Shown here piece after piece: positions 20,763 through 60,579 of a stretch of DNA of 64,000 nt. The stretch covers positions 85,018-149,017 of the forward strand of contig JAHFIQ010000003.1 of NCBI GenBank assembly GCA_023246355.1, in the 5' to 3' direction. The stretch comes from Candidatus Uhrbacteria bacterium. Lineage in GTDB: Bacteria; Patescibacteriota; Patescibacteriia; UBA9934; GWF2-40-263. The first letter of the stretch is position 1. Each line of letters starts with the position of its first letter. The position numbers were made by a program, and so were the translations under genes. The notes under the pieces were generated by a model. The model saw nothing but the letters and a program-made list of their open reading frames with translations. It had not been told where the DNA came from and made no database searches.

Positions 20763-20763
20763 T

Positions 20764-20866: not shown

Positions 20867-20880
20867 ACGCCAGGCTAGGC

Positions 20881-24901: not shown

Positions 24902-24906
24902 GCTGA

Positions 24907-25032
24907 GACCTCTGCAAAACTCGCGATCTTGCGTTTCACGGGCGCCCGTCGACCCCACTCTACATAGATAACCTACGTTTCGTGGGGCTCGACAGCCCGT
25001 TCAACGCAATCTCATCGAGTTTTTGAGAGGTC
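24907..25032 (-). repeat. MITE-like structured repeat, copy D (inverted orientation, diverged core)
   Basis: Termini GACCTCTGCAAAACTCGCGATCTTGCG ... CGCAATCTCATCGAGTTTTTGAGAGGTC match the reverse complement of copies A-C. The core has diverged. Overlaps the 3' end of CDS 25012-25419. Confidence 0.7.
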
Positions 25033-28127: not shown

Positions 28128-28145
28128 TCCACCTTTTCCACCTCT
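28125..28145 (+). repeat. CCACCT repeat (TAATCCACCTTTTCCACCTCT) abutting the ybaB start codon
   Basis: Same CCACCT family as upstream of dnaK and murC. Confidence 0.5.
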
Positions 28146-28451
28146 ATGTTCTCAAAACTCAAACACATCCGCGATCTCAAAAAGCAAGGCAAGGACATGC
28201 AAAATGAACTCGCGACCATCGTCAACGAAGGCTCTGCTGCCTGGGGCAAAGTCAAACTGGTTGTGAATGGAAATCGCGAGCTCATGAGTGTGTCGATCGA
28301 TGACGAGATGATGAAGGACCGACCCAAGCTCGAGGAAGCCATCAAGAACGCATTCAAGGACGCCACGGGGATGAAGTTTCAAATGAAGCTCGCCAAGAAG
28401 ATGCAGGACATGGGAGGAATGGATATCCTGAAGAAATTTGGTGGTGAATAG
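28146..28451 (+). CDS. ybaB: nucleoid-associated protein YbaB/EbfC
   Basis: 101 aa; KLVVNGNRELMSVSIDDEMM YbaB signature. Confidence 0.92.
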   Translation: MFSKLKHIRDLKKQGKDMQNELATIVNEGSAAWGKVKLVVNGNRELMSVSIDDEMMKDRPKLEEAIKNAFKDATGMKFQMKLAKKMQDMGGMDILKKFGGE

Positions 28452-33581: not shown

Positions 33582-36196
33582 AGAGCGGCGGCTTCTTCTA
33601 TGCGAATCCCTCCTCCTGCCTCAAGCACAATCGTGTCACGTCGTTTCACTTTTCCTTCCAACAGAGCGTTGGCAATCGCGTTGTCAACTTCCTCCTGTAC
33701 CAGACGCCGCAGAGGTCGCGCGCCAAATTTTGGATCAAAGCCTTTTTGCGCGAGCTCGGCAATCGCCTCAGGAGCCGCCCGAAATCCGATGCCTTTTGGC
33801 TCCAACCGTTTTGCCACCTGGGCCATAAACAATTCTGTAATCGAAAGGACATCTTCACGTGCAAGAGGCTTGAACACAATCACCCCATCAAACCGATTCA
33901 AAAATTCAGGTCGATAAATTCCGCGCAATGCTTCTTCCAACAACTGCGTTTTCACACTCGCCAGATCTTCGCCACGTCCTACGGCATCTTGGATATACTG
34001 CGTGCCGGCATTGGAAGTCGCGATGATGATCGTGTTGGTAAAATCAACCGTGCGTCCTGCCGCATCTGTCAAACGTCCGTCATCAAACACCTGCAAAAAG
34101 AGATTCAAAATATCGGCGTTTGCTTTTTCAAGCTCATCCAACAGGACAATGGAAAAAGGATTTTTCCGCACGGCCTCGGTGAGCAACCCACCTTGTCCTG
34201 ATCCTGGCACACCGATCATCCGATGGATGCTCGAGGGATCTTGATACTCGGACATGTCCAGGCGAATCATCAGGTCCTCTGAACCGAAGTAGGTCTGTGC
34301 GACGGTTTTCGCCAGCTCTGTCTTTCCCACACCAGTTGGTCCGAGAAACAAAAACGTGGCGATGGGTCGAGCTTGGGAACGCAATTCTGTCCGTGCTCGA
34401 CGGAGCGCGGCGGACACGGCTGACACGGCTTCGTCTTGGCCGATCACGCGACCATGCATGCGGCTTTCAAGGGCCAACAACTTTTCTGTTTCATCGGATT
34501 GAACCGAAGTGGTTGGGATTCCCGTCTTGCCGGCGACGATCAGACTCACATCTTCCCCTGTCACCAACGCATCCTTACCTCTCGTCTTCGCCACCTGCAG
34601 CGCGGTCTCACGAGCAATTTCAATCGCCTTCTTTGGCAAGTAGGTTTCATGCATGTACCGATCGGTGAGTGTCACGGCCTTCTCCACGGCCTCGTAGCTG
34701 AACACCACGTGGTGCTCATATTCCATTCCACCAATTTTGGATTCAAGGATGTGAATGGCCGCTTTGTGATCGGGTTCCAACACATCGACCTTCTGAAATT
34801 CGCGACCGAGCACAGATCGCTCCACCACTTCGCTGTAGGCCTGTGGCGTGGTGGTGGCAATCGCGAATGTCCCGCTGCGTGAGAGAAAATCCACAAGCGT
34901 TGAGGCGAGATCGTTGGCCCCGTTTTGCGAAACGAGTTGATCGATGTCGGTGATCGCTAGAATAATATTGCGAGACTTGGCGACTTCCGAGAGCACAAGC
35001 AGCAACCTCTCCTGAGCCTCTGCCTCAGAGGCACCAGACACAAGATGAGGAATCGAAAGACGCACAAGACGTTTGTCTTGCAAAATCGTTGGCACACACT
35101 CTTCCACCATCAGCTCAGCCACACCAGCCACGATGGATGTTTTTCCTACCCCTTCAGATCCCACGAGGATCACACTTTGACGACCACCTTCGATCACGCG
35201 AAACAATTCTTCGATCTCGCTCTCGCGCTCAATCAGCATGGGCAATCTGCCGGACACGGCCGCGGTGGTGAGATCCTCAGAAAGGGCATCGAGCATGGGC
35301 GTGACCACGCTGGTCATTGATCGATTCATGGCGCCTGTGGGTTTGTAGAGCGCGGCTTTTTTAAAACGTTCGTAGCGCTCACGCATCTTTTCGTGAATGC
35401 CAAGCCACGCCACCATGTTCCAAAATTGATTCTCATCCACGTGGTTGTCCAAGAGGAGCTCCTGCAAAAAAGGATCTGCTTGATAGCTTGCCGCAAACAC
35501 CGCAAGCGCGGTCACGTGCTCTTGTTTTTCTCGCAGAGCCCCACGAAAGCCTTCCAACAGGACCCGCTCAGCATCCAAAGAAAACTGCGTGGGTTTACTC
35601 AGTGGCCGCGTTGAAAGCCGGCGTGTCAGAGGATCTTTCAGTACATCGACTGTCAACCCAAGACGATTAAACACAACATGCACGTTCACATCATCAAGCG
35701 CCCCGACAAAAAGATGAATCGGCTCGACCGTTGCGTGTCCGTAGGAATTTGCCAGCTCAAAGGCCGCCTCAACGGCTTTCTTGGCATCGGGTGAAAAGAA
35801 CGTTTCGATGTTGATCGCCTCGTTCACTGCATCCACCTCTTCCACCTTCCCCACCTCTTCTCCCACTGGCATCTTCACTTCACGATGCGCCACAAGACGC
35901 TTGTGATACCAAACAAACAACAGCGCGAGCCCTGTTCCCCAGACGAACACGAGAGTCCAAGAAGGCTTCATCCAAAAGGCAGATGTCAAAACACGTGTCG
36001 GATCTGTGATGAGCAACAGAAGGATCGCCACCGCCGCAAAAACGCAGGTCTTCACCACACTTAAGATAAACAACACCTGCATGGCTTTTTCGTGAGCTGA
36101 GCGATCCATCACGATTGCCTCGTCCAGGACCGCAGACCAGACATAGGTCTTGCCACCAAGTTGTACGGCGAGCTTTGGCATATCAGAAAAGGACAC
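33578..36196 (-). CDS. ClpA/ClpC-like double-AAA+ chaperone with an N-terminal transmembrane region
   Basis: Two AAA modules (GSEGVGKTS and GPTGVGKTE Walker A; DELEKA sensor region) about 255 aa apart (no ClpB M-domain). The first ~110 aa contain 2-3 hydrophobic helices. An alternative start at MPVGEEVG would remove them. Confidence 0.8.
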   Translation of the reverse strand: MSFSDMPKLAVQLGGKTYVWSAVLDEAIVMDRSAHEKAMQVLFILSVVKTCVFAAVAILLLLITDPTRVLTSAFWMKPSWTLVFVWGTGLALLFVWYHKRLVAHREVKMPVGEEVGKVEEVDAVNEAINIETFFSPDAKKAVEAAFELANSYGHATVEPIHLFVGALDDVNVHVVFNRLGLTVDVLKDPLTRRLSTRPLSKPTQFSLDAERVLLEGFRGALREKQEHVTALAVFAASYQADPFLQELLLDNHVDENQFWNMVAWLGIHEKMRERYERFKKAALYKPTGAMNRSMTSVVTPMLDALSEDLTTAAVSGRLPMLIERESEIEELFRVIEGGRQSVILVGSEGVGKTSIVAGVAELMVEECVPTILQDKRLVRLSIPHLVSGASEAEAQERLLLVLSEVAKSRNIILAITDIDQLVSQNGANDLASTLVDFLSRSGTFAIATTTPQAYSEVVERSVLGREFQKVDVLEPDHKAAIHILESKIGGMEYEHHVVFSYEAVEKAVTLTDRYMHETYLPKKAIEIARETALQVAKTRGKDALVTGEDVSLIVAGKTGIPTTSVQSDETEKLLALESRMHGRVIGQDEAVSAVSAALRRARTELRSQARPIATFLFLGPTGVGKTELAKTVAQTYFGSEDLMIRLDMSEYQDPSSIHRMIGVPGSGQGGLLTEAVRKNPFSIVLLDELEKANADILNLFLQVFDDGRLTDAAGRTVDFTNTIIIATSNAGTQYIQDAVGRGEDLASVKTQLLEEALRGIYRPEFLNRFDGVIVFKPLAREDVLSITELFMAQVAKRLEPKGIGFRAAPEAIAELAQKGFDPKFGARPLRRLVQEEVDNAIANALLEGKVKRRDTIVLEAGGGIRIEEAAAL

Positions 36197-36604: not shown

Positions 36605-37763
36605 CTATCCACTGACGTAAACGCTGCATCAGTGTCAGATAAAAATGAAGATTATGAATCGTGGAAAGACGTAGAGCTAAAATTTCGTTCACAGAAAAAA
36701 GATGGCGAAGATAGGCCCGAGACGTCGTCTTGCAGGTTTCGCAGGAACAGAATGGATCAATGCGGCCTTGGTCGAGTTGATATGTTTCGTTGGTTACGCG
36801 CAGCTTGTCATAAAAAGTCCGTAGTCCGACCTGACCCCATTCGATCGTTTCGGGTCGCTGGGTCCACACAAACAACGTTCCGTGTCTGGCATTGCGAGTC
36901 GGCAAAACACAATCAAACATGTCCACACCCATCTTCACATACTCCACAATTTCCTCTGGCATGCCGCCGCCCATGAAGTAGCGAGGTTTATCTTCCGGCA
37001 AAAGTTCGCAGACTCTGGAGGTTATCCTGTACGCATCTTCTCGAGACTCGCCCACGGAAAGTCCACCGATCGCATAGCCATCAAAACCAATGTCGACCAA
37101 TCCATTGACTGATCGCTCGCGAAGATCTTCGTGTATGCCGCCTTGGACGATACCAAACAGCTGAGCTGCCGCGTCGATATTGTCTCCGGGCCGCCGGACT
37201 GTCGCCGTCGTTCCCTCCGACAACATCGACGTGGCAGCTTTGTAAAACACATCTTTACATCGCCTCGCCCAACGTAAAGATCTCTCCATGGCTTCTTCGT
37301 ACCGCTCACGCGAGGAATCTCCCGCGGCCACATCATCAAATTGCATCGCGATATCAGATCCGATCGCGGATTGCATCTCCATGGACAGCTCTGGTGTCAG
37401 TGTGATGCGCGAGCCGTCCAGATGAGACTGAAAGATCACACCGTCTTCGGTCGTCTTATTCATCTTTGAAAGGCTGAATACTTGATAGCCGCCCGAGTCG
37501 GTTAAGATCGGCCCGTCCCAGTTCATGAATCGATGAAGTCCCCCGAGGGCTTTCATGTGTTCGAGTCCAGGGCGCAACAACAGATGGTAGGTGTTGGAAA
37601 GCAAGATCTGCGCGCCCAAATTTTTCATGTCAGCGCTCGACATCGTTTTAACCGCACCCTTGGTCGCAATGGGCATGAAAAATGGCGTCTCGATGATTCC
37701 ATGAGGCGTCGTGAGCTGCCCGCGTCGAGCACGGCCATGTGTTGTCTGCACATCCATTCCCAT
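36591..37763 (-). CDS. tgt: queuine tRNA-ribosyltransferase
   Basis: DSGGYQ catalytic region and zinc-site CSCETC; 390 aa. Confidence 0.95.
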   Translation of the reverse strand: MGMDVQTTHGRARRGQLTTPHGIIETPFFMPIATKGAVKTMSSADMKNLGAQILLSNTYHLLLRPGLEHMKALGGLHRFMNWDGPILTDSGGYQVFSLSKMNKTTEDGVIFQSHLDGSRITLTPELSMEMQSAIGSDIAMQFDDVAAGDSSRERYEEAMERSLRWARRCKDVFYKAATSMLSEGTTATVRRPGDNIDAAAQLFGIVQGGIHEDLRERSVNGLVDIGFDGYAIGGLSVGESREDAYRITSRVCELLPEDKPRYFMGGGMPEEIVEYVKMGVDMFDCVLPTRNARHGTLFVWTQRPETIEWGQVGLRTFYDKLRVTNETYQLDQGRIDPFCSCETCKTTSRAYLRHLFSVNEILALRLSTIHNLHFYLTLMQRLRQWIEKAA

Positions 37764-38917: not shown

Positions 38918-39271
38918 CTACCTTTGAGACTCGCGCAAGGAACACAATTTTTTCCAAAGGATATTGGATGAAGCATCCATTCGCGACCAAGTATCTTCGC
39001 TGATATAAGAAAGTTTTAAAGCGATTTTGAAAGCCGCATGAACTTCAACAAGAGAAGCAAGACCAATAGTAATGTATCTTGAGAATTCTTTTCTACTTCC
39101 ACGTGCAGAACCTTCAGCGAGATTAAGATAGATCGAGTAAGCCGCTCTACGAACCTGACTTGTTAATCCGTACTTCTCCTCAGGAGGAAAGGATGCGGTC
39201 GTTGCATGCACCGCATCAACGAAGGCAAGTATGTCCTTCCCGACCCTCAATTCTTCATATCGAAATCCCAT
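38918..39271 (-). CDS. four-helix-bundle protein (23S rRNA intervening-sequence protein family, TIGR02436-like)
   Basis: EEKYGLTSQVRRAAYSIYLNLAEGSARGSRKEFSRYITIGLASLVEV matches the family consensus (E.RYGLTSQLRRAA.SI..NIAEG..R...KEF..FL.IA.GSL.E). Confidence 0.9.
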   Translation of the reverse strand: MGFRYEELRVGKDILAFVDAVHATTASFPPEEKYGLTSQVRRAAYSIYLNLAEGSARGSRKEFSRYITIGLASLVEVHAAFKIALKLSYISEDTWSRMDASSNILWKKLCSLRESQR

Positions 39272-39770: not shown

Positions 39771-41669
39771 CTATTCCTTCTTCTCTTGAAACTCCGCATC
39801 AATTGGCTCGTCTTTTTTTTCTTCCTGCCCACCTTCTCCACCTTGTCCACCTGTTCCACCTTGTCCACCTGCCGTTTGATACATCTTCGCACCCACTTTC
39901 TGTGCAGCGGTCGACAACTCGTCGGCGGCTTTCTTGATAGCTTCGTGATCATCACCATCCTTCACGGCCTTGAGCGCAGCAATCTTGTCTTCGATGTCTT
40001 TCTTTTCCTCAGGAGTGGCTTTTTCCCCAGCCTCTTTCATCATTTTCTCCGTTGTGTAAATCATGGTATCTGCTAAATTCTGATGCTCAACCTTTTCTTT
40101 GAGCTTCTTATCTTCCTCTGCATGACTTTCCGCGTCGCGCTTCATGCGTTCCACTTCGTCCTTGGAAAGTCCTGTGGATCCTTGAATGGTAATTTTCTGA
40201 CTCGTACCCGTGCCTTTGTCCGTGGCCGACACATTCAAAATGCCGTTGGCATCAATATCAAACTTCACTTCCACCTGAGGCACGCCGCGAGGTGCCATGG
40301 GGATGCCGGACAAAATAAATCGACCGAGCGTCTTGTTGCCAGACGCCACTTCACGTTCCCCTTGCAGCACATGAATCTCCACCGTTGTCTGGTTGTCTGC
40401 GGCTGTGGAAAAAATTTGTGACTTGCCAGCAGGAATCGTCGTATTGCGTTCAATCAGTTTCGTCATCACGCCACCGAGTGTTTCAATGCCAAACGAGAGT
40501 GGGGTGACATCCAACAGAAGCACGTCTTTCACTTCACCTTGAAGAACGCCCGCTTGCACCGCAGCGCCAAGGGCCACGACTTCGTCTGGATTCACGGTGA
40601 TGTTCGGCTTCTTTCCAAAAAAATCCTCAACGGTTTTTAAGACCAACGGCATGCGGGTCATCCCTCCGACCATGACGATTTCTTCGATCGCTCCCTTGTC
40701 GAGTCCCGCGTCTTTGAGCGCGGCCTTGAGCGGCACGAGTGTTTTGGCAACCAAGTCATGACACAGCTCTTCAAGCTTGCTGCGCGTCATGCTGAGCACC
40801 AAGTGCTTGGGGCCATTTGCATCAGAGGTAATAAACGGCTGGTTGATTTCCGTTTGTGCGGCTGTGGAGAGTTCGATCTTGGCACGCTCAGCCGCATCTT
40901 TCACACGTTGAAGCGCCAGAGAATCCTTGGACAGATCAATCCCCTCTTGCTTCTTGAACTCCTCCAAAATCCAATCAATGATCACGCGATCAAAATCATC
41001 GCCGCCCAGATGGGTATCGCCATTGGTGGATTTGACTTCGACGGTATCTTCAGAAACTTCCAGCACAGACACATCAAACGTGCCGCCACCCAAATCGTAG
41101 ACCACAATTTTCTGACCTTTCTTTTTATCGAAGCCGTAGGCAAGGGCCGCCGCTGTTGGCTCGTTGATGATGCGACGCACCTTGAGACCAGCAATCTCGC
41201 CAGCGGTTTTTGTTGCCGCGCGCTGTGCGTCATCAAAATACGCCGGTACGGTAATAATCGCTTCCTCGATTTTTTCGCCAAGTTTTTCCTCCGCATCCGC
41301 TTTCAATTTTTGCAGCACCATCGCGGAAATTTCCTCAGGCGTGTATTCCTTCTCTGCCATCTTGATCGCGACTCCATCGCCGCGTTTCACAATTTCAAAC
41401 GGCATGACCTTTTGGTCACGCATGACTTCCGCATCGTCAAAACGACGTCCGATCAATCGCTTGATGGAGTACAACGTATTTTTCGGATTGGTGACCGCTT
41501 GTCGTTTGGCTGACAAACCCACAGAGCGTTCACCAGCTTTGTTGACCGAAACCATCGACGGGGTGGTACGGGCGCCTTCTTTGTTTTCCAAAACCTTGGG
41601 CTGACCACCTTCGATGATCGCCACGCACGAGTTGGTTGTTCCAAGATCGATTCCGAGAATTTTTGGCAT
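39771..41669 (-). CDS. dnaK: chaperone DnaK (Hsp70)
   Basis: [21 protein letters not shown] and [10 protein letters not shown] signatures; Gly-rich [15 protein letters not shown] tail. Confidence 0.98.
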
Positions 41670-41764
41670 ATGGGAAAGGTATGTAAGGTAGACTAGGTAG
41701 ATGAGGTGGTAAAGAGGAATTGCACACCTCGGCCACCTTTTCCACCTTAACCACCTAAGTTGTT
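41670..41764 (-). repeat. AGGTGG direct repeats and CCACCT/CTACCT inverted repeats in the grpE-dnaK intergenic region
   Basis: Coding strand AGGTGGTTAAGGTGGAAAAGGTGG...CCACCTCATCTACCTAGTCTACCTTACATACC. The first repeat overlaps the grpE stop codon. Confidence 0.6.
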
Positions 41765-42217
41765 AATAATCACCTTCGCTGGACGGACAATGCGGTCACC
41801 GAGCTTCCAGCCGCGATGGATGACTTCCAAAATTTGATCATCGAGCGCGCTCTCATCCGTTTTTTCACCAACCGCTTCGCACGACGTGCTATCGAACAGC
41901 TCTCCGGCGTTTCCAAATGCCTCCAGTCCCAGATTTTTCAAAACACCTTCCAGACCCTGTCGTACATGCAGAATGCCTGCGAGCCATTTTTCTATTTCCG
42001 GTGAACCTCCTTCTGGTTTGTGCTTGAGTGCTTGATCGAAATGATCAATCGATTCGATCAGATCGTGGGCGAGAAATTCTTTTGTGCCTTCACGAATGGC
42101 CGTGCGCTCTTTGGCGAGATCTTTTTTGAGATTATCGTAGTCGGCCAAAGCGCGTTTCCATCCTGTGAGATACTCGTCACATTTCACACATGGGTCGATT
42201 GGTGTTTTATCACTCAT
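41747..42217 (-). CDS. grpE: nucleotide exchange factor GrpE
   Basis: Start set at MSDKTPIDP (ATG RC of 42215-42217). The track ORF extends to 42424 only because repeat copy A lacks stops in that frame. Confidence 0.88.
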
Positions 42218-42285
42218 AAGACATTTTTCAAAATAAGATGAGATCGGCTTGAACGGGCTGGCAGACGCTGAAAACCTACTCATGG

Positions 42286-42409
42286 GACCTCTGCAAAACT
42301 CGATGAGATTGCGATGCGCGGGGAAGCCAGCCTCCGAGACGTAGTGAAAACTACGTTGAGGAGGTGGCGGGGCCCCGCAAGTCGCAAGATCGCGAGTTTT
42401 GCAGAGGTC
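42286..42409 (+). repeat. MITE-like structured repeat, copy A (124 bp)
   Basis: GACCTCTGCAAAACTCGATGAGATTGCGATGCGCGGGGAAGCCAGCCTCCGAGACGTAG-tgaaaa-CTACGTTGAGGAGGTGGCGGGGCCCCGCAAGTCGCAAGATCGCGAGTTTTGCAGAGGTC. Terminal inverted repeats of ~17 bp. Lies in the hrcA-grpE intergenic region. Confidence 0.8.
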
Positions 42410-42410
42410 A

Positions 42411-43100
42411 CTATAGTTGTTCAATGACGTTACGCGCTGATTCGACCAAAGCTAAGTTTCGACGATAATTCATTCTGAGTGGCCCGGTGACACCGACAAA
42501 CCCTTCCTCACCACTGTGGATTTGGTAGCGCACCACGACCGTGGCCATCTGTGAACCAAAGGGATTTTCAGAACCGATCCACACATGCGGCTCTTGGCCT
42601 GCACGCGCAAACAATCCCATCAGGAGTTCATCAAATTGATCGATCACATCTGAAAGTTCCATGATGATTGCCAAATTCTGAAAATCCGGTTTGTGAAACA
42701 AATTGGCCACGCCTGAGTAATAGCTCCACTCATCATTGAAGGCGAGAATCGCGGTCTCTCCCGAAACTTCACCAAGCGTTTTGACCACAGACTTCAGCGC
42801 GCTTTGCGTGTTGTCCTCATCGGGAACCGGCAAGGCTTTCACAAGCGTGGAAACTTTTTTCTCCACCAAATGCTTCAGGTAATAAACGTACGCTTTTTCC
42901 GTTGGTACACGACCGGCCGAGGTGTGCGGGGCGACAAGATAGCCTTCGCCCTCAAGTACAGCCATTTCGTTTCGAATCGTGGCAGCGGAAACCCCCAAAT
43001 CAAATTGCTCGTTGAGGACCTTTGAACCAACCGGCTCAGCACAGCGGATGTATTCCTCAATCAGGATCTTTAAAATGAGTTCTTTTCTGGAATCCAGCAT
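42411..43100 (-). CDS. hrcA: heat-inducible transcription repressor HrcA
   Basis: wHTH N-terminus (ILKILIEEYIRCAEPVGSKVL) and HrcA C-domain. Start set at MLDSRKEL (ATG RC of 43098-43100). Confidence 0.9.
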   Translation of the reverse strand: MLDSRKELILKILIEEYIRCAEPVGSKVLNEQFDLGVSAATIRNEMAVLEGEGYLVAPHTSAGRVPTEKAYVYYLKHLVEKKVSTLVKALPVPDEDNTQSALKSVVKTLGEVSGETAILAFNDEWSYYSGVANLFHKPDFQNLAIIMELSDVIDQFDELLMGLFARAGQEPHVWIGSENPFGSQMATVVVRYQIHSGEEGFVGVTGPLRMNYRRNLALVESARNVIEQL

Positions 43101-45831: not shown

Positions 45832-47289
45832 ATGGGAGCTGGAAATGTCATCGTACGATTTGAAGATGTGTCCTTTGGATACCAACGCGAGAACCCCATT
45901 CTCGATGAGGCGAGTTTTTCGGTTCGCGAAGATGTGAAGCTCACGCTCATGGGACAAAATGGTGCGGGCAAAAGTACCATCTTCAAACTCATCACAGGGG
46001 AATTGAAAGCAGACAAAGGCAACGTTCATATCCTTCCTGGAAAGACCATCGCCACTGCCAAGCAAGTCATGGCGCGTGAACACCTGACTGAATCTGTCCG
46101 CGACTATTTTGGTCACGCGTTTGTTGACGTGCCATACAACCTCGATAAAAAAATCAAAGACGTTCTGGAGGTTGTGAATCTCACAGCCCCCCTTGAAAAA
46201 CCCGTCGGTGATTTTTCTGGTGGACAACAGGCGCGGCTGTTGTTGGCGTTTGCGCTCATCCAGGAACCAGACATCTTGCTCTTGGACGAACCTACAAACA
46301 ATCTGGATCGCGACGGCATCGATCATCTCACCATGTTTCTCATTCTCTATCCCAAAACCGTGCTCGTCATTTCTCACGACGCGGATTTCTTAAACAGCTT
46401 CACTGAAGGCGTGCTCCATCTGGATGTCTTCACAGGCAAAGTGGAAAAATACGATGGCAACTACACGGACGTGGTAGAAGAAATCGCTGCACGCGTTGAA
46501 CGTGACCGTGCAAAAAATGCCCAGCTTCTCAAAACCATTCAAGATCGAAAAGACAAAGTCAATTTTTTTGCACACAAAGGTGGCAAGATGCGTAAACTTG
46601 CAAGCAAACTTCGTGAAGAAGTAGCCGAGGCCGAAGAAAATATGGTCGATGTCCGCCGCGACGACCGAACGATCACAAATTTTACCATTCCCTGCCAGGC
46701 GTTCACTGAACCGATCGTCAAAATTACGGGAGTGAAAGTCATCCAAAACCACGAGCCGCATCACGTCAAAATCGATCTTGAACTCCGTCGCAGAAATCAC
46801 CTCCTGATCGCGGGCCCAAACGGGATCGGCAAAAGCACATTGCTTCGATCACTCGCCGAGGGAAAAAATCCTGACGCGGTCATCACACCAGGTGTGAAGG
46901 TCGGCTACTACAAACAGGATTTCTCTGGACTTGATTTTGCAAAAACGGCCTATGCTTCACTAGAGGAAGTCATGGATCAACCTGACAACGAAACCATTCG
47001 ACGCACGGGCGCACGATTTCTCTTGGACGGCGATGCTCTTGCCACACCAGTGGGCGCCCTCTCTGAAGGCCAAAAAGGATTGCTCTGCTTTGCACGATTC
47101 GTCCTGCAAGAACCAGGCCTGCTCATCTTCGACGAACCAACCAACCACATCAATTTCCGCCACCTCCCGGTTATCGCCCGCGCTTTGAACGACTTTGAAG
47201 GCTGCCTCATCGTGGTCAGCCACGCCGAGGATTTTGTGAAGCAGATTCGATTTGACCAGACGCTGGATCTCTCGTCCTTGATAAAATAG
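45832..47289 (+). CDS. ABC-F family ATPase (tandem ABC domains, no TM)
   Basis: Two Walker A sites (GQNGAGKST and GPNGIGKST) and two ABC signatures (FSGGQQARL and LSEGQKGLL). Start set at MGAGNVIVRF to leave room for divergent promoters. Confidence 0.88.
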   Translation: MGAGNVIVRFEDVSFGYQRENPILDEASFSVREDVKLTLMGQNGAGKSTIFKLITGELKADKGNVHILPGKTIATAKQVMAREHLTESVRDYFGHAFVDVPYNLDKKIKDVLEVVNLTAPLEKPVGDFSGGQQARLLLAFALIQEPDILLLDEPTNNLDRDGIDHLTMFLILYPKTVLVISHDADFLNSFTEGVLHLDVFTGKVEKYDGNYTDVVEEIAARVERDRAKNAQLLKTIQDRKDKVNFFAHKGGKMRKLASKLREEVAEAEENMVDVRRDDRTITNFTIPCQAFTEPIVKITGVKVIQNHEPHHVKIDLELRRRNHLLIAGPNGIGKSTLLRSLAEGKNPDAVITPGVKVGYYKQDFSGLDFAKTAYASLEEVMDQPDNETIRRTGARFLLDGDALATPVGALSEGQKGLLCFARFVLQEPGLLIFDEPTNHINFRHLPVIARALNDFEGCLIVVSHAEDFVKQIRFDQTLDLSSLIK

Positions 47290-47295
47290 TCGTGA

Positions 47296-47419
47296 GACCC
47301 CTGCAAAACTCGATGAGATTGCGGTGCGCGGGGAAGCCAGCCACCGAGGCGTAGCGATAGCTACGTTGAGGTGGTGGCGGGGCCCGCAAGCCGCAAGATC
47401 GCGAGTTTTGCAGGGGTCT
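47296..47419 (+). repeat. MITE-like structured repeat, copy B (124 bp)
   Basis: GACCCCTGCAAAACTCGATGAGATTGCGGTGCGCGGGGAAGCCAGCCACCGAGGCGTAG-cgatag-CTACGTTGAGGTGGTGGCGGGGCCCGCAAGCCGCAAGATCGCGAGTTTTGCAGGGGTC. Confidence 0.8.
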
Positions 47420-47461
47420 CTTGTATTGACAACATCACTACATCTGCTACCCTGGTATTAT

Positions 47462-47740
47462 ATGACAACGGTGCAAGTTCGTATTGATGAAAAAACAAAA
47501 CGCGAAGCCAAGCGTGTGCTGGACGGTCTTGGCATTGACATGAGTGGCGCCATCAAACTCTACCTCCGCCAAATTTCTCTGCACCGAGGGATTCCACTGC
47601 CTCTGAGAACAAAAAATGGGTTAACACCTCAACAAGAAGTTGAGATTCTCACCGCGTCAAGTGAGGCAAAAGAAGGAAAAAACGTTTCAAAAAAAATGAG
47701 TCCTCGTCAGGCTCTCGACTATCTGAATTCACTCTCATGA
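47462..47740 (+). CDS. dinJ: RelB/DinJ-family antitoxin
   Basis: MTTVQVRIDEKTKREAKRVLDGLGIDMSGAIKLYLRQISLHRGIPLPL matches the DinJ ribbon-helix-helix pattern; 4-bp overlap with the toxin gene. Confidence 0.85.
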   Translation: MTTVQVRIDEKTKREAKRVLDGLGIDMSGAIKLYLRQISLHRGIPLPLRTKNGLTPQQEVEILTASSEAKEGKNVSKKMSPRQALDYLNSLS

Positions 47741-48056: not shown

Positions 48057-48131
48057 GGCCCCATCGTCTAACGGTTAGGACGGCAGGTTCTCATCCTGCA
48101 AACCGGGGTTCGATTCCCCGTGGGGTCACCA
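48057..48131 (+). tRNA. tRNA-Glu (anticodon CUC), CCA encoded
   Basis: Cloverleaf: acceptor GGCCCCA/TGGGGTC, D-arm GTCT-AACGGTTA-GGAC, anticodon arm GCAGG-TTCTCAT-CCTGC, T-arm CGGGG-TTCGATT-CCCCG, 3' ACCA. Confidence 0.85.
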
Positions 48132-48173
48132 ACTAAAACACCTGAGTTTTCTCGGGTGTTTTAGTTGGTGACC
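48124..48173 (+). repeat. 19-bp perfect inverted repeat that includes the tRNA-Glu 3' acceptor/CCA end
   Basis: GGTCACCAACTAAAACACC-tgagttttctcg-GGTGTTTTAGTTGGTGACC, followed at 48175-48215 by an inverted partial copy of the tRNA T-arm region (GTGGGGAATCGAAC) interrupted by the palindrome GCACATGCCctgcGGCATGTGC. Confidence 0.7.
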
Positions 48174-48365: not shown

Positions 48366-48400
48366 TTTGTCTAAAAAGTCCGTAGTCGGACCTGACCCCA

Positions 48401-49366
48401 TTACTCCGGATACTCACTTACATACACCATGAAATACGAACCGTCGGCTAGCTCGGCGACGGCCATATCTTGGATGTAGCCGCTTCCGAGCGTGGAAGCC
48501 GCTGTGGCATCCAGGGCAATGTCGTCAGCCGTCCAGGTGGTTGCATCCGTTGTTGTGAACGAACGAATATTTGAATCAGGAAGAGAGAAACCAAATAGGC
48601 GCATCATGGAACCGTTAAACGTCGGATTAGAAATAATGTAGCCGCGCAGTGGAAGCTCAACGGTCGAAGGTGTCGTAAGGGTAAATGTTTTCCCGTCGGT
48701 TGAGGTTGCGTGATGTTGTTCCCCTGTCTTTTCATCCAACACAAACATATGCCACAGGCCATCAAAGAACATCGTGGAGGAATCGTTGAGATTATGTGTT
48801 GGGGATAGCGCAACACCTTTGTACGTAAACGCGATGCCGTCAGGACTCTCTGCATAGGCGATCCCCAGCGTGTTGTCCTGTTTCACGTTGGTCGTAAAAA
48901 ATAATCGGAAGGTTCCATCATCAAGCAAGACTATATCTGGATCACTTGGCGGGCGGTCAGACGTGGAAGGCCAATTGAGGCGCGTGGTGAAATGATAGGT
49001 CCACGTCTTCCCGTTGTCGCTTGAAATCGCCACAGGCATTGTTTCTTTTCCTTCTTCAATCCCTTGACCAATGTAGTACAGATAGATGGTTCCCTCGTCA
49101 GTCACTACCATGTCGGGAACGTTTCCCTGCTCGGTGAAAATCTCTCCCGTTGGTGTGAAATGAATCCCATCCGTGGAGGTTGCTGTAAGCAGTCGTCGTT
49201 CTCCTGCACTGGCAGGTGGTGGATTTTCTGCTTTTTCCGTTGGCGGAGTGAAATCACTCGTCTGTGTCTGTACGTCCGCATCACTCACGGACGATTCACT
49301 TGCCGATGAACAACCAAACCCAAGTATGACGATTCCCATCAGCACAAAAGATAGATATTTTTTCAT
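48401..49366 (-). CDS. BNR/Asp-box repeat lipoprotein (sialidase/glycosidase-like beta-propeller)
   Basis: Lipobox ILGFGCSS and Asp-box repeats SSDNGKTW and STDGKTFT; 321 aa. Confidence 0.6.
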   Translation of the reverse strand: MKKYLSFVLMGIVILGFGCSSASESSVSDADVQTQTSDFTPPTEKAENPPPASAGERRLLTATSTDGIHFTPTGEIFTEQGNVPDMVVTDEGTIYLYYIGQGIEEGKETMPVAISSDNGKTWTYHFTTRLNWPSTSDRPPSDPDIVLLDDGTFRLFFTTNVKQDNTLGIAYAESPDGIAFTYKGVALSPTHNLNDSSTMFFDGLWHMFVLDEKTGEQHHATSTDGKTFTLTTPSTVELPLRGYIISNPTFNGSMMRLFGFSLPDSNIRSFTTTDATTWTADDIALDATAASTLGSGYIQDMAVAELADGSYFMVYVSEYPE

Positions 49367-52498: not shown

Positions 52499-54257
52499 TG
52501 CTTCTTACAGGAGGAACCTCGAAATACTGTAGCAGAAACTCGGCGATTTCCCCAAACAAGGGCGCGGCGGTCGATTCGGCCCAGACCACGTCTTTTGGAT
52601 TGTCGATGCGCACGATCATGGCAAATTTTGGATCCTCAACCGGACCAAATCCCGCAAAGGAGCCGATGGTATTGTCAGAGGCATACCCGATTCCATCCGT
52701 CCTTGCCACTTGAGCTGTCCCTGTCTTCCCACCGATATAGTACCCAGGGACGCCGGCACGCTTTCCATGTCCGTATTCCACCACCGAGACAAGCATGGCT
52801 GCCAGGGTCCTGGCGGTTTTAGAATCAATGACTTGCGCGAGATCTTTCGTTTCACGTTTTTCAACGCTTCCATCGGCATGGCGAATTTCATCCACAATGA
52901 GCGGCTGTTTTAACATCCCGCCATTGGCAATGGCTGCGTAGGCCATCACGATCTGCAAAGGCGTTACCGTGATGCCTTGTCCGAACGTCGCGGTGGCAGA
53001 ATAAATTTCTGATGCGTTATCCAACGAAGAGATATCCCCACTTGATTCTGTCTCAAGTTCAATCCCGGTTGGAGAGCCAAACCCAAACGCATGAACGTAC
53101 TGCTCAAACACGGTCATGCCCATCGCCCGCATGGCAAAAATCATGCCTGTGTTGATGGAGTCTTCCAAGACCTGCGTCATCCCGACCGTCCCGTACACTT
53201 TTCCTTCCGCGTTCCCGATCGGCTTGGGCCATCCATCCACCATCACAGATCCGGTGTCTGTAAACGTCGTGGTCGGCGTGACAGCCCCCACATCCACGGC
53301 CGCGGCCATGGTGATCGGTTTAAACACAGAGCCTGGCTCATAGGAACCAAAAATCGCTGGATTGTTAAACACGTCAATGGAATCCACCTCACCGTAGTGG
53401 TTGGGATCAAAGTCAGGCGCGCCACACATGGCTAAAATTTTTCCCGTGGCTGGATCGACAATAATAATGCTTCCTCCCTCAGCACCATGTTTCAATACCG
53501 CTGCCTGGAGCGTTGAGCAGGCTTTGTATTGAATGGTTCTGTCGATCGTGAGCACGACATCAGATCCATCAACCGCAGGAATAAGATCTTGGTCTGCCAC
53601 GGCGATCAAACGTCCAGCAATGTCGCGTTCTGAACGAAGTGAGCCTGCGCTACCTGTCAGCACGTCATTAAAATATCCTTCGATGCCGTACTTTCCCGAG
53701 ACGCTCCCATCTTCATTTGCGCCAACAAAGCCAAGCACATGTCCGCTCATCTCAGGCTCGGGATAGACTCGAGAAGACTCACGGACATACGAGATTCCAG
53801 GAAGATCAAGATCGAGAATCTTTTGCAAGGTTGCATCATCGACTTCCCTTTCGATCGGTTCATACGGATCTTCCGGTTGATCAAGACGTTCTTCCAGGAG
53901 GAGAATAGCTTCATCGTCATAGCCAAAAATTTCTCCAAGAGCCTCTGCGGTATCGTCTGGTTCATCCACGAGCCTTGGATCGGCCCAGATAAACGCCAGC
54001 TCTTCATTGGTGGCCACAGGCACGATCGTCTCGTCCTTGTAGTCATGCAAATAAATATCTCCGCGCTCGGGAATCAATTCTTGAAACAGCTCATGCTGGC
54101 CGCTGGCAAGGGCCTCATAATAATCGTGTTCCAACACCTGCAAGACAACGAGCTTTAACACAATCACCCCAGCAAACGCCACAAGCGCATATCGAAACAC
54201 CTCCAGACGAATGTCCAGATCTCCACGCGCTGATGGTCCCCATCTGCCTCGTTTCAT
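52491..54257 (-). CDS. ftsI: penicillin-binding protein 2/FtsI-type transpeptidase
   Basis: N-terminal TM, SxxK (GSVFKP), SxN (DSINTG) and KTG (GKTGTAQ) motifs. Confidence 0.9.
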   Translation of the reverse strand: MKRGRWGPSARGDLDIRLEVFRYALVAFAGVIVLKLVVLQVLEHDYYEALASGQHELFQELIPERGDIYLHDYKDETIVPVATNEELAFIWADPRLVDEPDDTAEALGEIFGYDDEAILLLEERLDQPEDPYEPIEREVDDATLQKILDLDLPGISYVRESSRVYPEPEMSGHVLGFVGANEDGSVSGKYGIEGYFNDVLTGSAGSLRSERDIAGRLIAVADQDLIPAVDGSDVVLTIDRTIQYKACSTLQAAVLKHGAEGGSIIIVDPATGKILAMCGAPDFDPNHYGEVDSIDVFNNPAIFGSYEPGSVFKPITMAAAVDVGAVTPTTTFTDTGSVMVDGWPKPIGNAEGKVYGTVGMTQVLEDSINTGMIFAMRAMGMTVFEQYVHAFGFGSPTGIELETESSGDISSLDNASEIYSATATFGQGITVTPLQIVMAYAAIANGGMLKQPLIVDEIRHADGSVEKRETKDLAQVIDSKTARTLAAMLVSVVEYGHGKRAGVPGYYIGGKTGTAQVARTDGIGYASDNTIGSFAGFGPVEDPKFAMIVRIDNPKDVVWAESTAAPLFGEIAEFLLQYFEVPPVRSIE

Positions 54258-55447
54258 AATCCAAGTCCAAAACTAAACAACGATCCCTTTCCTCGTGGAT
54301 TTTTTCCTGAACGCACCTCATCCCCATCACTCACCCCATCGCCGTCCGTATCAGCGCGGCCTCGATCTGTTCCATAAAACGCTTCCAAAATATCATCGAG
54401 TCCATCGCCATCTTGGTCATCGGATGCTTCGACAGTGGTGACGGGCAAGCGCGCAGTCTGCTCATCCAAGAGTGTAGCCTCGCCCAAACTTAGACTCGCT
54501 CCCGCAGACTCAGGAAACACGGCATGCAAAATATCCACAAACGAAATGGCATCAGAAGGCGCGGCGATGTCGCTCATCTCGTTGAACTTGGAAAAATCCA
54601 CGCGTGCATCAACCGGAATCAGATCCGTACTCCCCTCCTGTACAAATCCACCGGCCGCCTGCACTCGATACAGAACGTGGTCATCCATGCCGATCCAAAA
54701 CCGAAGCGTGAGTCGTGCGAGTTGCTTGGCCTGCGTGTGAGCAAGAATTCGATCTGTATCTTCTGGTTCCTTTCCTTCTTTGGCGCGAACAGCATCGAGC
54801 AGGAATGCTTCTGTTGCATCTTGATCAAACCTCCCGTCAATGATGTGGGTGTTGGTGCCATCGATGATCTCGGTAAGACCGTTATACTCGGCCACGACGA
54901 TATCGGTCAGCGCCAGCATGTAGCGAAGTCGAGTGATCGCGGCGGGATTCCAACCCGTCAGCGGCGTGATGAAGGTAAGCGGCGCCTGAAGCCCAGGCAC
55001 GATCTCACCCCAGCCTTCTATCTCTCCCTCATCAAAGACCACCCAGGTGTCACCATCAAATGACACACCTGGCACAGCAGGTCCAGGCACAGCGTAAGTC
55101 AGATACGTTTTTTCACCGATCGTCTTTACTTCACCTGAGAGATCTGTGTAATCATCGTTTTTGGAAATATGAATCACGCGAAACTCTGTATCCTGTTCTA
55201 GATTCTCGTCCTCATCAGCCTGCACATTGCCTGAGGCATACAAAGTCGTGCTCACACGTTCCCCGCCTTGCTCGCGGCTCCAGCTAAAACCGTCGTCATG
55301 GGAAAAACTCGAGAGACTCGCCATGGCAATGGCCATGCGCCGCATCTCAACCTCAGGTCGAAACTTGGTGAGCACCACGTAAGCAGCAAACGTCAAAGCC
55401 ATCACGACCACCACGCCAAGGGTTATAAATGTCAATAGGTGTTTCAT
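54254..55447 (-). CDS. membrane-anchored hypothetical protein with C-terminal calcium-binding-like DxDxDG repeats
   Basis: Start set at MKHLLTFITLGVVVVMALTF (ATG RC of 55445-55447). C-terminus DQDGDGLDD...DTDGDGVSDGDE. The track extension to 55552 runs through repeat copy C. Confidence 0.5.
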   Translation of the reverse strand: MKHLLTFITLGVVVVMALTFAAYVVLTKFRPEVEMRRMAIAMASLSSFSHDDGFSWSREQGGERVSTTLYASGNVQADEDENLEQDTEFRVIHISKNDDYTDLSGEVKTIGEKTYLTYAVPGPAVPGVSFDGDTWVVFDEGEIEGWGEIVPGLQAPLTFITPLTGWNPAAITRLRYMLALTDIVVAEYNGLTEIIDGTNTHIIDGRFDQDATEAFLLDAVRAKEGKEPEDTDRILAHTQAKQLARLTLRFWIGMDDHVLYRVQAAGGFVQEGSTDLIPVDARVDFSKFNEMSDIAAPSDAISFVDILHAVFPESAGASLSLGEATLLDEQTARLPVTTVEASDDQDGDGLDDILEAFYGTDRGRADTDGDGVSDGDEVRSGKNPRGKGSLFSFGLGL

Positions 55448-55450
55448 ACA

Positions 55451-55574
55451 GACCTTTGCAAAAATCGATGAGATTGCGATGCGCGGGGAAGCCAGCCGCC
55501 GAGACGTAGGTAATCCTACGTTGAGGTGGTGGCGGGGCCCCGCAAGTCGCAAGATCGCGAGTTTTGCAAAGGTC
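55451..55574 (+). repeat. MITE-like structured repeat, copy C (124 bp)
   Basis: GACCTTTGCAAAAATCGATGAGATTGCGATGCGCGGGGAAGCCAGCCGCCGAGACGTAG-gtaatc-CTACGTTGAGGTGGTGGCGGGGCCCCGCAAGTCGCAAGATCGCGAGTTTTGCAAAGGTC. Confidence 0.8.
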
Positions 55575-55612
55575 TATAACAAAAGAGACAGCGTTTGCTG
55601 TCTCTTATTCTA

Positions 55613-56056
55613 TCAAAGTTCGGTCACATCGTCTTCTGAAACATACCTCCCCAGGTAGACCAGATTCTCCCCTGTTTCCTCGTTGCCGATGATTCTCAAA
55701 ATTTCACCTTCTGCTGTTTGATAATCGCTCACGAGAAACGTGTCGTCGACTTCGGCCACGGATTCACCGTTGGTGTCCATGACCGTGCCAGCTTCCTCAG
55801 AGGTGAATTCGTATTCCTTCTCTTTGAGCGTGACCGTGTCGCCTTCTGGCTCGATTTCGTCGTCGATCTCTTTGAAGAAAATAAGCTCTTCGTCTTTGAG
55901 GGACACAGAGAACAGATTTCCCTCGTCATCATAGAACCAACGCAGCTTTGCGCCGTCGTCGATTTCGATTTGCGCGTGACCAACGTAGGTAAACGGATCC
56001 GTGCCAATTTTGAGTGCGTCACCTAAATGTAGTCTCCAAAGGTCTTTGATCGTCAT
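55613..56056 (-). CDS. hypothetical acidic protein (147 aa)
   Basis: ORF rich in D/E (EIDDEIEPEGDTV) with no recognised catalytic motif. Confidence 0.45.
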   Translation of the reverse strand: MTIKDLWRLHLGDALKIGTDPFTYVGHAQIEIDDGAKLRWFYDDEGNLFSVSLKDEELIFFKEIDDEIEPEGDTVTLKEKEYEFTSEEAGTVMDTNGESVAEVDDTFLVSDYQTAEGEILRIIGNEETGENLVYLGRYVSEDDVTEL

Positions 56057-56133
56057 AATGGTTCCTCCTTAAAAATACAGGAGGATTAAAACACGCCAAC
56101 GCTTTTGTGTCTACTCCTCTAGTTTTCCCCACC

Positions 56134-56158
56134 CAAGTTGGGAGCCTGGCTCCCAACT
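56134..56158 (+). promoter_or_regulatory. 25-bp perfect palindrome AAGTTGGGAGCC-T-GGCTCCCAACTT followed by a T-run
   Basis: At the low-GC/high-GC boundary. Could be a terminator-like hairpin or a dimeric protein-binding site. Confidence 0.4.
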
Positions 56159-56182
56159 TTTGGCTTATTTTAGCTACGTACC

Positions 56183-56211
56183 CTTGACAAAACCGTCAAA
56201 ATATGATATCT
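56183..56211 (+). promoter_or_regulatory. sigma70-like promoter (TTGACA-17-TATCTT) for the high-GC gene at 56306
   Basis: cccTTGACAaaaccgtcaaaatatgaTATCTTac; TTGAC...GTCAA also forms a small palindrome. Confidence 0.45.
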
Positions 56212-56305
56212 TACTCGCCTCAGAATGTGGCGGGTTATCTGAGTGACGGACAGAAGTCACTGAGACCACCCGCTGCTTCTGCAGCACTTTTCCCAGGAGT
56301 ACATC

Positions 56306-56986
56306 TTGTCTGTTCCCCAACTCAAGCCGCCGTTCGCGCGCGTCTTCCTGATGATCCGCATCAACCCGCGGAAGGTCAGCCGCTTCGAGCAAGCCGGCAT
56401 CCGTATCGTCCGGCGCACGGCCGAGCGTGACGAGGCCATCCGTGCGAGGCATGCCGAGCAGGTCGGCGAGGAGAAGTACGAACGGTTCGGACTCCGGCAG
56501 GACGCGGAGGGCAACCTTCGCGGCCACTCGGGAGAACCCGTGTTCGGCTTCAACCGCAAGGGCATCCCCCACGAAGCGATCAAGCTGTTCCACCTCCACG
56601 ACGACCTCCAGACGGCCGGCTACAGGCTGATCCGGATGGAGATCGTGATCAAGCCGCGCACGGAGGAGAACAAGCTCGAGAAGAAGCCCGACATGGGCGT
56701 GCTGGTCCTGGCCTACGAGCAGGAAGGCACGGAGGTCGCCCTCACGCAGCTTCAGCTCCAGATGCTCGGCAACGAGCTCTCACGCTACTTCCAACACGTC
56801 CACGTCTGGGACAACAGGGACGCCGACGGCTCTGCCGCGGTGAACCCGTCCCACGTGGTCGAGGAGAAGGACGAGGGGAAGCTCACCGACCCGCGCCTGC
56901 TGCGCCTCCAGATCCTCGACAGCGGGGAGCCGGAGTGGATCAACGAGCCCGAGGCGGCCCCTGCCGCGATGGCCGCCAACGGCTAG
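56306..56986 (+). CDS. hypothetical protein (226 aa), high-GC (~65%) island gene
   Basis: ORF with strongly GC3-biased codons (CTG, GGC, GAG, AAG, GAC), unlike the core genes. No family assigned. An alternative start exists at MIRINPRKV. Confidence 0.5.
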   Translation: MSVPQLKPPFARVFLMIRINPRKVSRFEQAGIRIVRRTAERDEAIRARHAEQVGEEKYERFGLRQDAEGNLRGHSGEPVFGFNRKGIPHEAIKLFHLHDDLQTAGYRLIRMEIVIKPRTEENKLEKKPDMGVLVLAYEQEGTEVALTQLQLQMLGNELSRYFQHVHVWDNRDADGSAAVNPSHVVEEKDEGKLTDPRLLRLQILDSGEPEWINEPEAAPAAMAANG

Positions 56987-57005
56987 CAACGCACTGCCCC
57001 GTGCG

Positions 57006-57070
57006 AAGAAGAGTCCCCGCGTGATTTCGATCACCGGAAACGAGACTCGACTTCGCGCGGGGCTCTTCTT
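57006..57070. other. 15-bp perfect inverted repeat (AAGAAGAGTCCCCGCG ... CGCGGGGCTCTTCTT) between convergent island genes
   Basis: Stem with a 34-nt loop. Possible bidirectional terminator. Confidence 0.4.
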
Positions 57071-57081
57071 ATCCAAAAAAT

Positions 57082-57627: not shown

Positions 57628-57659
57628 ACGACAACAAGTATAACAAAAAACCGCCGCGA

Positions 57660-58610: not shown

Positions 58611-58618
58611 GATTCCTC

Positions 58619-60568: not shown

Positions 60569-60579
60569 GGGATCCGTGT

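Follow-up and report, generated by a model that had tools for sequence, protein, structure and literature searches.

Bacterial miniature inverted-repeat transposable elements (MITEs) are generally shorter than 200 bp, reach up to about 400 bp, lack a transposase gene, end in terminal inverted repeats (TIRs), are flanked by direct repeats, form stem-loops at the RNA level and are mobile (PMC3184786). Size, inverted-repeat ends, direct-repeat flanks, lack of a transposase gene, stem-loop and mobility are all found in a palindromic element without coding capacity, of which four complete copies lie in a 64,000-nt stretch of Candidatus Uhrbacteria DNA (assembly GCA_023246355.1, contig JAHFIQ010000003.1, positions 85,018 to 149,017; hereafter the window). 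Copies A (42284-42411), B (47294-47420) and C (55449-55576) stand on the plus strand and copy D (24905-25034) on the minus strand. With a probability of about 0.75, we regard them as belonging to a family of palindromic, MITE-like mobile elements that are non-autonomous and reside in Candidatus Uhrbacteria. The family is apparently undescribed, and its hosts (candidate phyla radiation, CPR; Patescibacteria) form an unexpected group: in CPR bacteria the genome measures about 1 Mb, the spacers between genes are very short and mobile DNA is usually thought to be scarce. No description of such a repeat or structured RNA in CPR/Patescibacteria was found in the literature.

Comparison with Described Palindromic Elements

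ERIC, bcr1 and the Correia elements are nearest in kind to the Uhrbacteria element, which is a member of none of them, as host, flanking motif and architecture differ. The enterobacterial repetitive intergenic consensus (ERIC, also IRU) measures about 127 bp, is listed as a MITE and is flanked by TA (PMC3184786). The Uhrbacteria element shares its size class, its imperfect palindrome giving one long RNA hairpin, its lack of coding capacity, its dispersal in transcribed intergenic regions in either orientation, its internal-insertion variants and its conservation between species. In contrast with ERIC of the Enterobacteriaceae, all its host loci are Uhrbacteria-like, its flanks are varied repeats of 3-9 bp (ATGA, GTAT, TGAT and others) instead of TA, its termini are variable, its core is an invariant, asymmetric arrangement of G.A pairs and a bulge, and compensatory variation is far more abundant. 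ERIC is set apart by description, and E. coli-rich plasmid data contained no match to the Uhrbacteria element.

The bcr1 elements of the Bacillus cereus group are about 155 bp long, are flanked by 5-bp direct repeats, are transcribed and maintain their fold by compensatory changes (PMC3184786). Likeness extends to a genomic distribution that differs between related strains, to short direct-repeat flanks and to compensatory pair changes; however, the host is unrelated and the sequence apparently so, and whereas decay and uneven stability are reported for bcr1 copies, the 59 distinct Uhrbacteria copies keep a near-perfect rod. The Correia elements (NEMIS) of Neisseria, MITEs of about 104-157 bp, are likewise abundant, intergenic, inverted-repeat-ended and variable in size, form mRNA hairpins, and differ in presence or absence between close strains. 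Correia ends consist of conserved 26-bp TIRs with a TA duplication, an integration host factor (IHF) site and promoter elements. The termini of the Uhrbacteria element, in contrast, vary, and no promoter-like site was found in or beside the window copies.

REPINs are doublets of short REP sequences mobilised by RAYT without target duplication (PMC3116915). They resemble the Uhrbacteria element as highly abundant intergenic hairpins that conserve structure over sequence, persist for long periods and are proposed to be recognised as single strands (PMC3116915). The Uhrbacteria element differs in being one continuous rod of about 125 nt with target duplications, and neither a RAYT nor any other recurrent neighbour gene was found. 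Its varied, duplicated flanks also differ from the fixed tetra- or pentanucleotide without duplication of the palindrome-associated members of IS200/IS605.

Filled and Empty Sites

Five orthologous comparisons of filled and empty sites mark the copies as insertions. The loci compared, here and below, are designated by L numbers. In four relatives with GrpE proteins 61-78% identical, the genes hrcA and grpE stand 2 nt apart or share 4, 8 or 14 nt; in the window they are separated by 128 nt of copy A and by a 58-nt remnant left from another copy. ATGAGT-like repeats of the former junction flank the remnant, and a degraded one lies to the left of copy A. The closest hrcA-grpE relative, GCA_016235605.1, carries the element at L003 and at L064:1482-1609 and none between hrcA and grpE; it thus has the family but not the copy A insertion.

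At the junction of a DUF2938-like gene with xseA, the two genes overlap by ATGA in L065 and L066, whereas L007 reads ACATGA-element-TATGATT, with ATGA duplicated and both stop and start preserved. L003 and L030 account for two further comparisons: they are syntenic around infA-rpmJ (neighbouring proteins 63-93% identical), and their elements occupy different adjacent spacers, each of them empty in the other genome. Finally, the site of copy C is empty in L068 (DUF4178 protein 80% identical), where an 83-nt spacer consists of the native hairpin and TTTTGGT, followed directly by ATG. In the window, copy C sits between a sequence ending in TTTTGTTAT and GTATG, and the comparison yields the duplication GT(T)AT...GTAT.

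Duplications of this kind are enriched overall. Over all copies, exact direct repeats that are 4 nt or longer and lie no more than 3 nt from the ends were observed 18 times against 4.45 expected, and perfect 9-mers (9/9) twice against 0.07. In the subfamily ending in GAGACC the repeats are mostly 4-5 bp long (TGAT, TATT, TGTTG, CAAAT, CCATT, TCAT, ATAC), and in copies with other outer stems 6-9 bp (CTGGTG, TCTTGACGG, CTATAGAAC). There is a hint here that each outer-stem type has a cutting enzyme of its own, although the numbers are too small for a claim.

These comparisons establish that the element inserts into very short intergenic spacers, including 4-nt ATGA stop/start overlaps, and that it duplicates a few target bases, mostly 4-5 bp, so that both flanking open reading frames (ORFs) survive; at ATGA overlaps they do so because the duplication rebuilds both codons. 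They also establish that related genomes carry independent insertions at different sites. The ATGA-overlap insertions constitute a natural experiment on how translationally coupled genes tolerate a 125-nt hairpin between them. A different insert, an 81-nt, repeat-rich palindrome, occupies the DUF2938-like/xseA junction at L067:2420-2500, and gene junctions in Uhrbacteria genomes seem to be hot spots for hairpin insertions.

A Selected Fold with an Invariant Core

The element is 123-131 bp long, with variants of 162-166 bp, which leaves no room for a transposase gene, and all 59 distinct copies fold as one rod, with predicted minimum free energies (MFEs) from -49 to -116 kcal/mol. The sense strand, defined as plus for copies A-C and minus for copy D, is the more stable one in 59/59. 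In copies A to D the terminal pairing extends over 17-19 bp, perfect or near-perfect, and the termini are also paired across 56 copies of standard length. These 56 copies were aligned with MAFFT, independently of the covariance model described below (alignment A4), and 34 basal pairs were imposed. Paired cells amount to 95.5%, against 76.4% in shuffled alignments and 28-48% when partners are slid by 1-3 columns; changes on both sides occur in 25/34 pairs and in 352 cells, and 0/500 shuffles reach the observed values. Selection on the hairpin is strong. G.U is commoner than A.C in the variable stems (52 vs 23), which, together with the non-canonical core, indicates that pairing is read on one particular strand.

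From the ends inwards, the rod begins with an outer stem of about 10 bp, the TIRs, which is variable, falls into a few recurrent types and differs between subfamilies. Inside the outer stem lies a conserved stem, AAAACUCG/CGAGUUUU, and then the essentially invariant, asymmetric core, 5'-GAUGAGAU / 5'-AGAUCGC. The latter runs as a closing G-C pair, a bulged A, U.G, G-C, A-U, a tandem G.A and A.G, and U-A. Among the 56 copies, the bulged A and G.A are each present in 56/56, A.G in 55/56 and U.G in 53/56 (otherwise U-A); alignment columns 20-27, the 5' half, are invariant or at least 98% conserved, copies found by the covariance model only included. In copy A, the 5' half is 42302-42309 on the plus strand (GATGAGAT: closing G, bulged A, U of U.G, G, A, tandem G-A, U) and the 3' half 42387-42393 (AGATCGC; columns 111-117). 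Beyond the core come more covarying stems, broken by a second 2x2 loop that is G.A/A.G in most copies, and an apical domain of several interchangeable types.

In the long variants (162-166 nt) an additional hairpin, CCCGCCCGA...TCGGGCGGG, branches off the core. This small palindrome (CCCGCCCGA-N-TCGGGCGGG, about 31-45 nt) is nested on either side of the core in L002:2558-2719, L002:5934-6096 and L005:3808-3973, and stands alone at L014:238-282, L033:10701-10731 and L060:14626-14656; occurring on its own, it looks like a second, REP-like element nested in the long variants.

The preliminary description had proposed covarying helices, selected for their structure, from the four window copies. 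The paired substitutions it listed are in the sequence, both at the termini (CCTCTG/CAGAGG, CCCCTG/CAGGGG, CCTTTG/CAAAGG) and in an internal helix (CCTCC/GGAGG, CCACC/GGTGG and CCGCC/GGTGG, the last with a G.U pair), and mutations in the further copies keep the helices, so that selection on structure is now strongly supported.

Distribution in Candidatus Uhrbacteria

An exact scan for the 21-mer CGCAAGATCGCGAGTTTTGCA, which selects on the 3' arm only, was carried out on one genome per species of GTDB and returned seven contigs: metagenome-assembled genomes (MAGs) of Candidatus Uhrbacteria with about 42-53% G+C, the unclassified MAG DeMMO3_34 and one genome labelled 'Gammaproteobacteria'. All seven loci are Uhrbacteria-like. 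The 'Gammaproteobacteria' label of L007, which would imply spread across phyla, was rejected: the contig is mis-binned, since Uhrbacteria proteins share 60-86% identity with its XseA. The window, too, falls within Uhrbacteria according to the homologues of its GrpE. Metagenomes, scanned with a two-motif pattern demanding both core motifs, added 48 loci, mostly from groundwater, including the Hainich and 'NC_groundwater' sites. A covariance model was then built from ten copies and searched over these loci, which gave 69 copies, 59 of them distinct, in 56 sources. The repeat is thus far from confined to the window.

Copies recur every 3-16 kb overall, with 2-3 per 8-14 kb in L002, L012 and L039. 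Copy A shares 92-94% identity with copies of other genomes (one of them in a locus of 42% G+C) and 91-93% with B and C; copy D shares 95% with the copies of MAG DeMMO3_34 (L001, L006) and only 77% with A. Several core types therefore coexist in a genome and are common to different genomes. Identity between genomes (92-95%) is about that within a genome (88-93%) across Uhrbacteria of 42-53% G+C. An element found every few kilobases with such identity points to active horizontal traffic in groundwater populations. In practice, it breaks assemblies and inflates or extends ORF calls, that of GrpE among them, and the covariance model of this analysis can be used to annotate the family.

Searches for a Partner, a Vehicle or a Known Family

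In about 540 kb of loci, a search for half-sites with the spacing of an insertion sequence (IS) returned only two 5'-only fragments and, besides these, one copy cut at a contig end; no IS-like spacing and no 3'-only fragment was found. The only truncated copies, at 42218-42275 of the window and at L042:3540-3554, both retain the 5' end of the sense strand and are too few to speak of polarity. All-against-all BLAST of 399 predicted neighbour proteins revealed no family in more than three loci, and those loci are syntenic; there is no recurrent transposase-like neighbour and no gene family linked to the element. As to a vehicle, no match was found among the viruses, plasmids and phages of IMG/VR, PLSDB and INPHARED.

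The copies match neither rRNA, tRNA nor any other Rfam family: Rfam 15 returned only tRNAs and no match to the element, both at gathering thresholds and when relaxed to E<=10 for copy A and E<=1 for L002, L005, L012 and L039. Three resemblances were examined and rejected. A k-turn or box C/D-like motif (GAUGAGA...GA) does not fit, as the tandem G.A lies in a symmetric 2x2 loop instead of the layout in which a 3-nt bulge has the tandem G.A/A.G on its 3' side and a canonical helix beyond its other side, and the register it needs is contradicted by the covariation of alignment columns 17-20 with 117-120 (CG, UA, GC and AU types). A hammerhead-like resemblance (CGAUGAG; CGAAAC in the D-type core) is at odds with an unbranched rod, and no ribozyme of Rfam matched. 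Integron attC sites have the core-site consensus RYYYAAC / GTTRRRY and lie in cassette arrays next to intI; the ends examined here, GCAAAAC/GTTTTGC-like, are off this consensus, and the copies lie between housekeeping genes (hrcA and grpE, infA and rpmJ), not in cassette arrays.

Interpretation and Alternatives

Five filled/empty comparisons, enriched flanking repeats and dispersal without a constant neighbour support the MITE-like reading, and that of the preliminary description is in essence upheld. In the mechanism that we favor, the element would be mobilised in trans and spread horizontally among Uhrbacteria. Its hairpin would be selected in a single-stranded form, either DNA (ssDNA) or RNA, of one strand, since neither the non-Watson-Crick core nor the surplus of G.U over A.C is present on the antisense strand. 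A protein that moves or processes the element most probably recognises it at the invariant core; an invariant core amid freely covarying helices is a candidate protein-recognition motif and could lead to the mobilising or processing enzyme. Once inserted, a copy would be a passive passenger transcribed with the host operon. In the host transcript the rod probably keeps the insertion harmless or, by analogy with ERIC and Correia, modulates mRNA processing or stability.

Several observations weigh against a MITE-like element. No autonomous partner, i.e., a transposase flanked by matching ends, was found in the 540 kb of loci. Variability is greatest in the outermost 10 bp, just where a DDE transposase would normally require conserved ends, and the subterminal core does not vary; nor would a classical MITE, moved by cut-and-paste as double-stranded DNA, be expected to show conservation of one strand in particular. 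About half of the copies lack flanking repeats or have none that can be recognised, and the repeats vary in length (3-9 bp). The 48 metagenomic loci suffer from ascertainment bias and the invariance of the core is partly built in, because the pattern that fetched them required both core motifs. It is nevertheless argued to be real, as the first seven loci were selected on the 3' arm and about nine copies were found by the model alone; in these the adjacent CUCG/CGAG stem has covaried to UUGG/CCAA, CGAG/CUCG and others while the core is kept. Finally, orientation is biased. Of 50 copies, 36 have their sense strand on whichever strand is locally richer in C (36:14, p = 0.003), and in 34 it lies opposite the strand that carries most of the genes (34:16); the two measures are confounded, and the copies, several per locus in places, are not fully independent. 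Replication, transcription or counter-selection may underlie the bias. Orientation counts, here and below, rest on the crude, codon-usage-scored gene caller of this analysis.

The rival that survives best, which we hold possible if doubtful, is a domesticated cis-acting RNA element: mobility would be only its origin, and the hairpin would be kept for its service to the host in operon mRNAs. Its role there could be to offer a processing site to RNase III/RNase E, to stabilise the mRNA, to insulate, or to hold stop and start together and so preserve translational coupling. Of 43 scorable copies, 36 stand between co-directional genes, often 0-10 nt from stop and/or start (six of the others are between divergent genes and one between convergent genes); copy A and that of L007 split genes formerly overlapping and presumably coupled, with stop and start at the two ends of the rod; and both strands still fold strongly (-45 to -107 kcal/mol). 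Effects on mRNA stability have a precedent in ERIC and Correia (PMC3184786). Yet the non-canonical core and the G.U excess stay on one strand whichever way the host genes run, and the operon-internal copies are mostly transcribed as the other, weaker strand (22 antisense and 14 sense among the 36). The terminal arm generally supplies no Shine-Dalgarno sequence to the next gene (4/18 adjacent starts, against a background of 17%), and the element is linked to no gene family. Two copies lie beside tRNA genes: L012:3935-4061 with the tRNA 3859-3932 (-), and L012:6054-6180 with the tRNA 6184-6274 (+). Each is 2-3 nt upstream on the same strand, and from this arrangement both would be part of tRNA precursor leaders.

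An unlikely reading, which would make the element a new class of hairpin-borne CPR mobile element and not a deletion derivative of an ordinary IS, is a structure-specific mechanism not yet described, in which a protein or the RNA itself reads the bulged-A/U.G/tandem-G.A core on one single strand, be it ssDNA or RNA. It would explain together the free termini, the near-perfect fold, the non-canonical features of a single strand and the orientation bias.

We consider it less likely still that the element is an ssDNA transposon of the REP/REPIN or IS200/IS605 ('PATE') kind, recognised as an ssDNA hairpin at the replication fork by an HUH (Y1) enzyme or RAYT. Strand- and structure-specific conservation with extrahelical and mismatched bases would be in keeping with such an enzyme, as would the 36:14 orientation bias relative to GC skew, the tolerance of variable termini and the second, REP-like family of small hairpins in the same genomes. 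However, IS200/IS605 and REPINs make no target duplications, and duplications are present at the sites defined by empty alleles (ATGA, GTAT) and enriched overall, which does not fit the prediction for an HUH/RAYT element. Moreover, no conserved tetranucleotide lies 5' of the insertions, no Y1/RAYT-like gene recurs among the neighbours, and the folding strand, which mostly coincides with the C-rich strand, would run counter to the IS608 rule.

Free-standing structured RNAs were the other possibility raised by the preliminary description. That the copies are multi-copy noncoding RNA genes, encoding trans-acting small RNAs or RNA partners of a protein, is improbable, although the copies have RNA-like traits (many compensatory changes, G.U pairs and three internal loops of GA type) and are 92-95% identical between genomes whose GrpE proteins share only about 55-80% identity. 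Flanks are not conserved, there is neither a promoter-like site at the window copies nor a terminator tail, positions are non-syntenic between relatives, copies are wedged into operons in either orientation, their density is one per 3-16 kb, and none has an Rfam match. RNA-mediated mobility, with the folded RNA as an intermediate copied back by target-primed reverse transcription, is scarcely credible: flanking repeats of variable length, truncated copies that keep the same end without 3'-only counterparts and strand-specific, RNA-like constraints speak for it, but the truncated fragments are only two, no reverse transcriptase lies near any copy, no A-rich or other priming tail is present, and we know of no bacterial precedent for SINE-like elements.

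Copies of the Window and Their Genes

Under the favored MITE-like reading, the window holds four complete insertions and one remnant. A repeat scan grouped A, B and C as direct repeats of a single family and picked up D by the inverted matches of its two arms; together with the covariance model and the 21-mer scan (four exact occurrences in the window, against 0.00 expected in shuffles), it placed the copies where the preliminary description had them. A filter-free scan of the 64 kb with the covariance model found no additional copy. The limits used here are slightly wider, since the stem reaches 1-2 bp farther out (GA...TC) in B and D than was drawn. A length of exactly 124 bp had been given for A-C; it is right for A and C, whereas B has 123 nt between GACC and GGTC, one C fewer. 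On the sense strand each copy forms one long hairpin (z of -11 to -13; 0/200 shuffles fold equally well), and the antisense strand is weaker by 11-16 kcal/mol. The gene contexts first assigned to the four copies hold, and the ORFs 41747-42424, 47324-47740 and 54254-55552 are, as suspected, artefacts inflated by the stop-free repeat.

Copy A, with an A-type core (148.7 bits with the covariance model; MFE -90.2 kcal/mol, z -12.9), separates grpE from the hrcA stop (42411-42413, minus strand) and runs antisense to the hrcA-grpE-dnaK operon. Because a perfect sigma70-like promoter, TTGACA-16-TATAAT (43148->43121, minus strand), stands upstream of hrcA, copy A should be co-transcribed, in antisense, within the hrcA-grpE-dnaK mRNA. 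Adjoining it is the remnant at 42218-42275 (plus strand, 58 nt), an older insertion of another core type that was detected by an inverted-repeat match and had been missed in the preliminary description. It retains the 5' arm, the core motif, P2, P3 and the first half of the apical domain, aligns over its full length with the 5' halves of copies in L039, L009, L008 and L002, and is flanked by ACTCAT (42212-42217 and 42278-42283), i.e., ATGAGT of the grpE start region on the gene strand. The public GrpE call on the source contig (178 aa, 41747-42283) has its ATG 3 nt from copy A and extends across the remnant, whose translation makes up a non-conserved N-terminal extension. As homologues cover only about 81-88% of this call and align only from MSDKTP (start 42217), the real GrpE probably has 156 aa, the call being 22 aa too long.

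Copy B (144.8 bits, -94.2 kcal/mol) is complete and one nucleotide shorter. It begins 4 nt past the stop of an ABC-F gene (47287-47289), ends 41 nt before the relB/dinJ ATG (47462) and has the orientation of both genes. Pfam identifies its neighbours as ABC_tran, RelB and YafQ (relB/dinJ-yafQ), RelB being called with 92 aa on the source contig. Copy C, also complete (141.4 bits, -81.9 kcal/mol), has on one side the DUF4178 gene with its intrinsic-terminator-like hairpin (55606->55583, minus strand) and on the other a 397-aa gene (ATG at 55447) that precedes a PBP/ftsI-like gene; it is antisense to both neighbours. Its flanks ATAC (55446-55449) and ATAA (55576-55579) read GTAT/TTAT on the gene strand. 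Copy D, complete as well (118.8 bits, -74.2 kcal/mol), bears out its described inversion and divergent core, being on the minus strand with a D-type core; the ORF 25012-25419 (minus strand) has its last seven codons and its stop inside it.

Other Features of the Window

Arrays of a 9-nt unit (AGGTGGAnn / CCACCTnnT) form, by two inverted arrays, an intergenic hairpin of about 95 nt at 20757-20874, upstream of a murC-like gene (-65.9 kcal/mol, z -8.2). Further arrays of this unit lie at 28114-28156, 35818-35878, 39823-39874 and 41718-41760, and away from 20757-20874 the same 9-mers occur inside coding regions, as in 'EEVGKVEEVD' of a ClpB-like protein and in the grpE N-termini of relatives. A perfect 24-bp hairpin at 48124-48173 (-44.8 kcal/mol, z -9.7) overlaps the 3' end of the tRNA 48057-48128 and could be a terminator or an attachment-site remnant. 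A 31-nt repeat, TAAAAAGTCCGTAGTC[C/G]GACCTGACCCCATT, occurs at 36811-36841 and 48372-48402, 11.5 kb apart and 97% identical. Between a ybaK-like (tRNA_edit) gene and dnaJ stands a PF05635 (23S_rRNA_IVP) gene (38918-39271), which is absent from the syntenic region of L060 and L062 and is thus a lineage-specific insertion. Over the last 8 kb of the window (56000-64000), G+C climbs from about 0.50 to 0.58-0.64.

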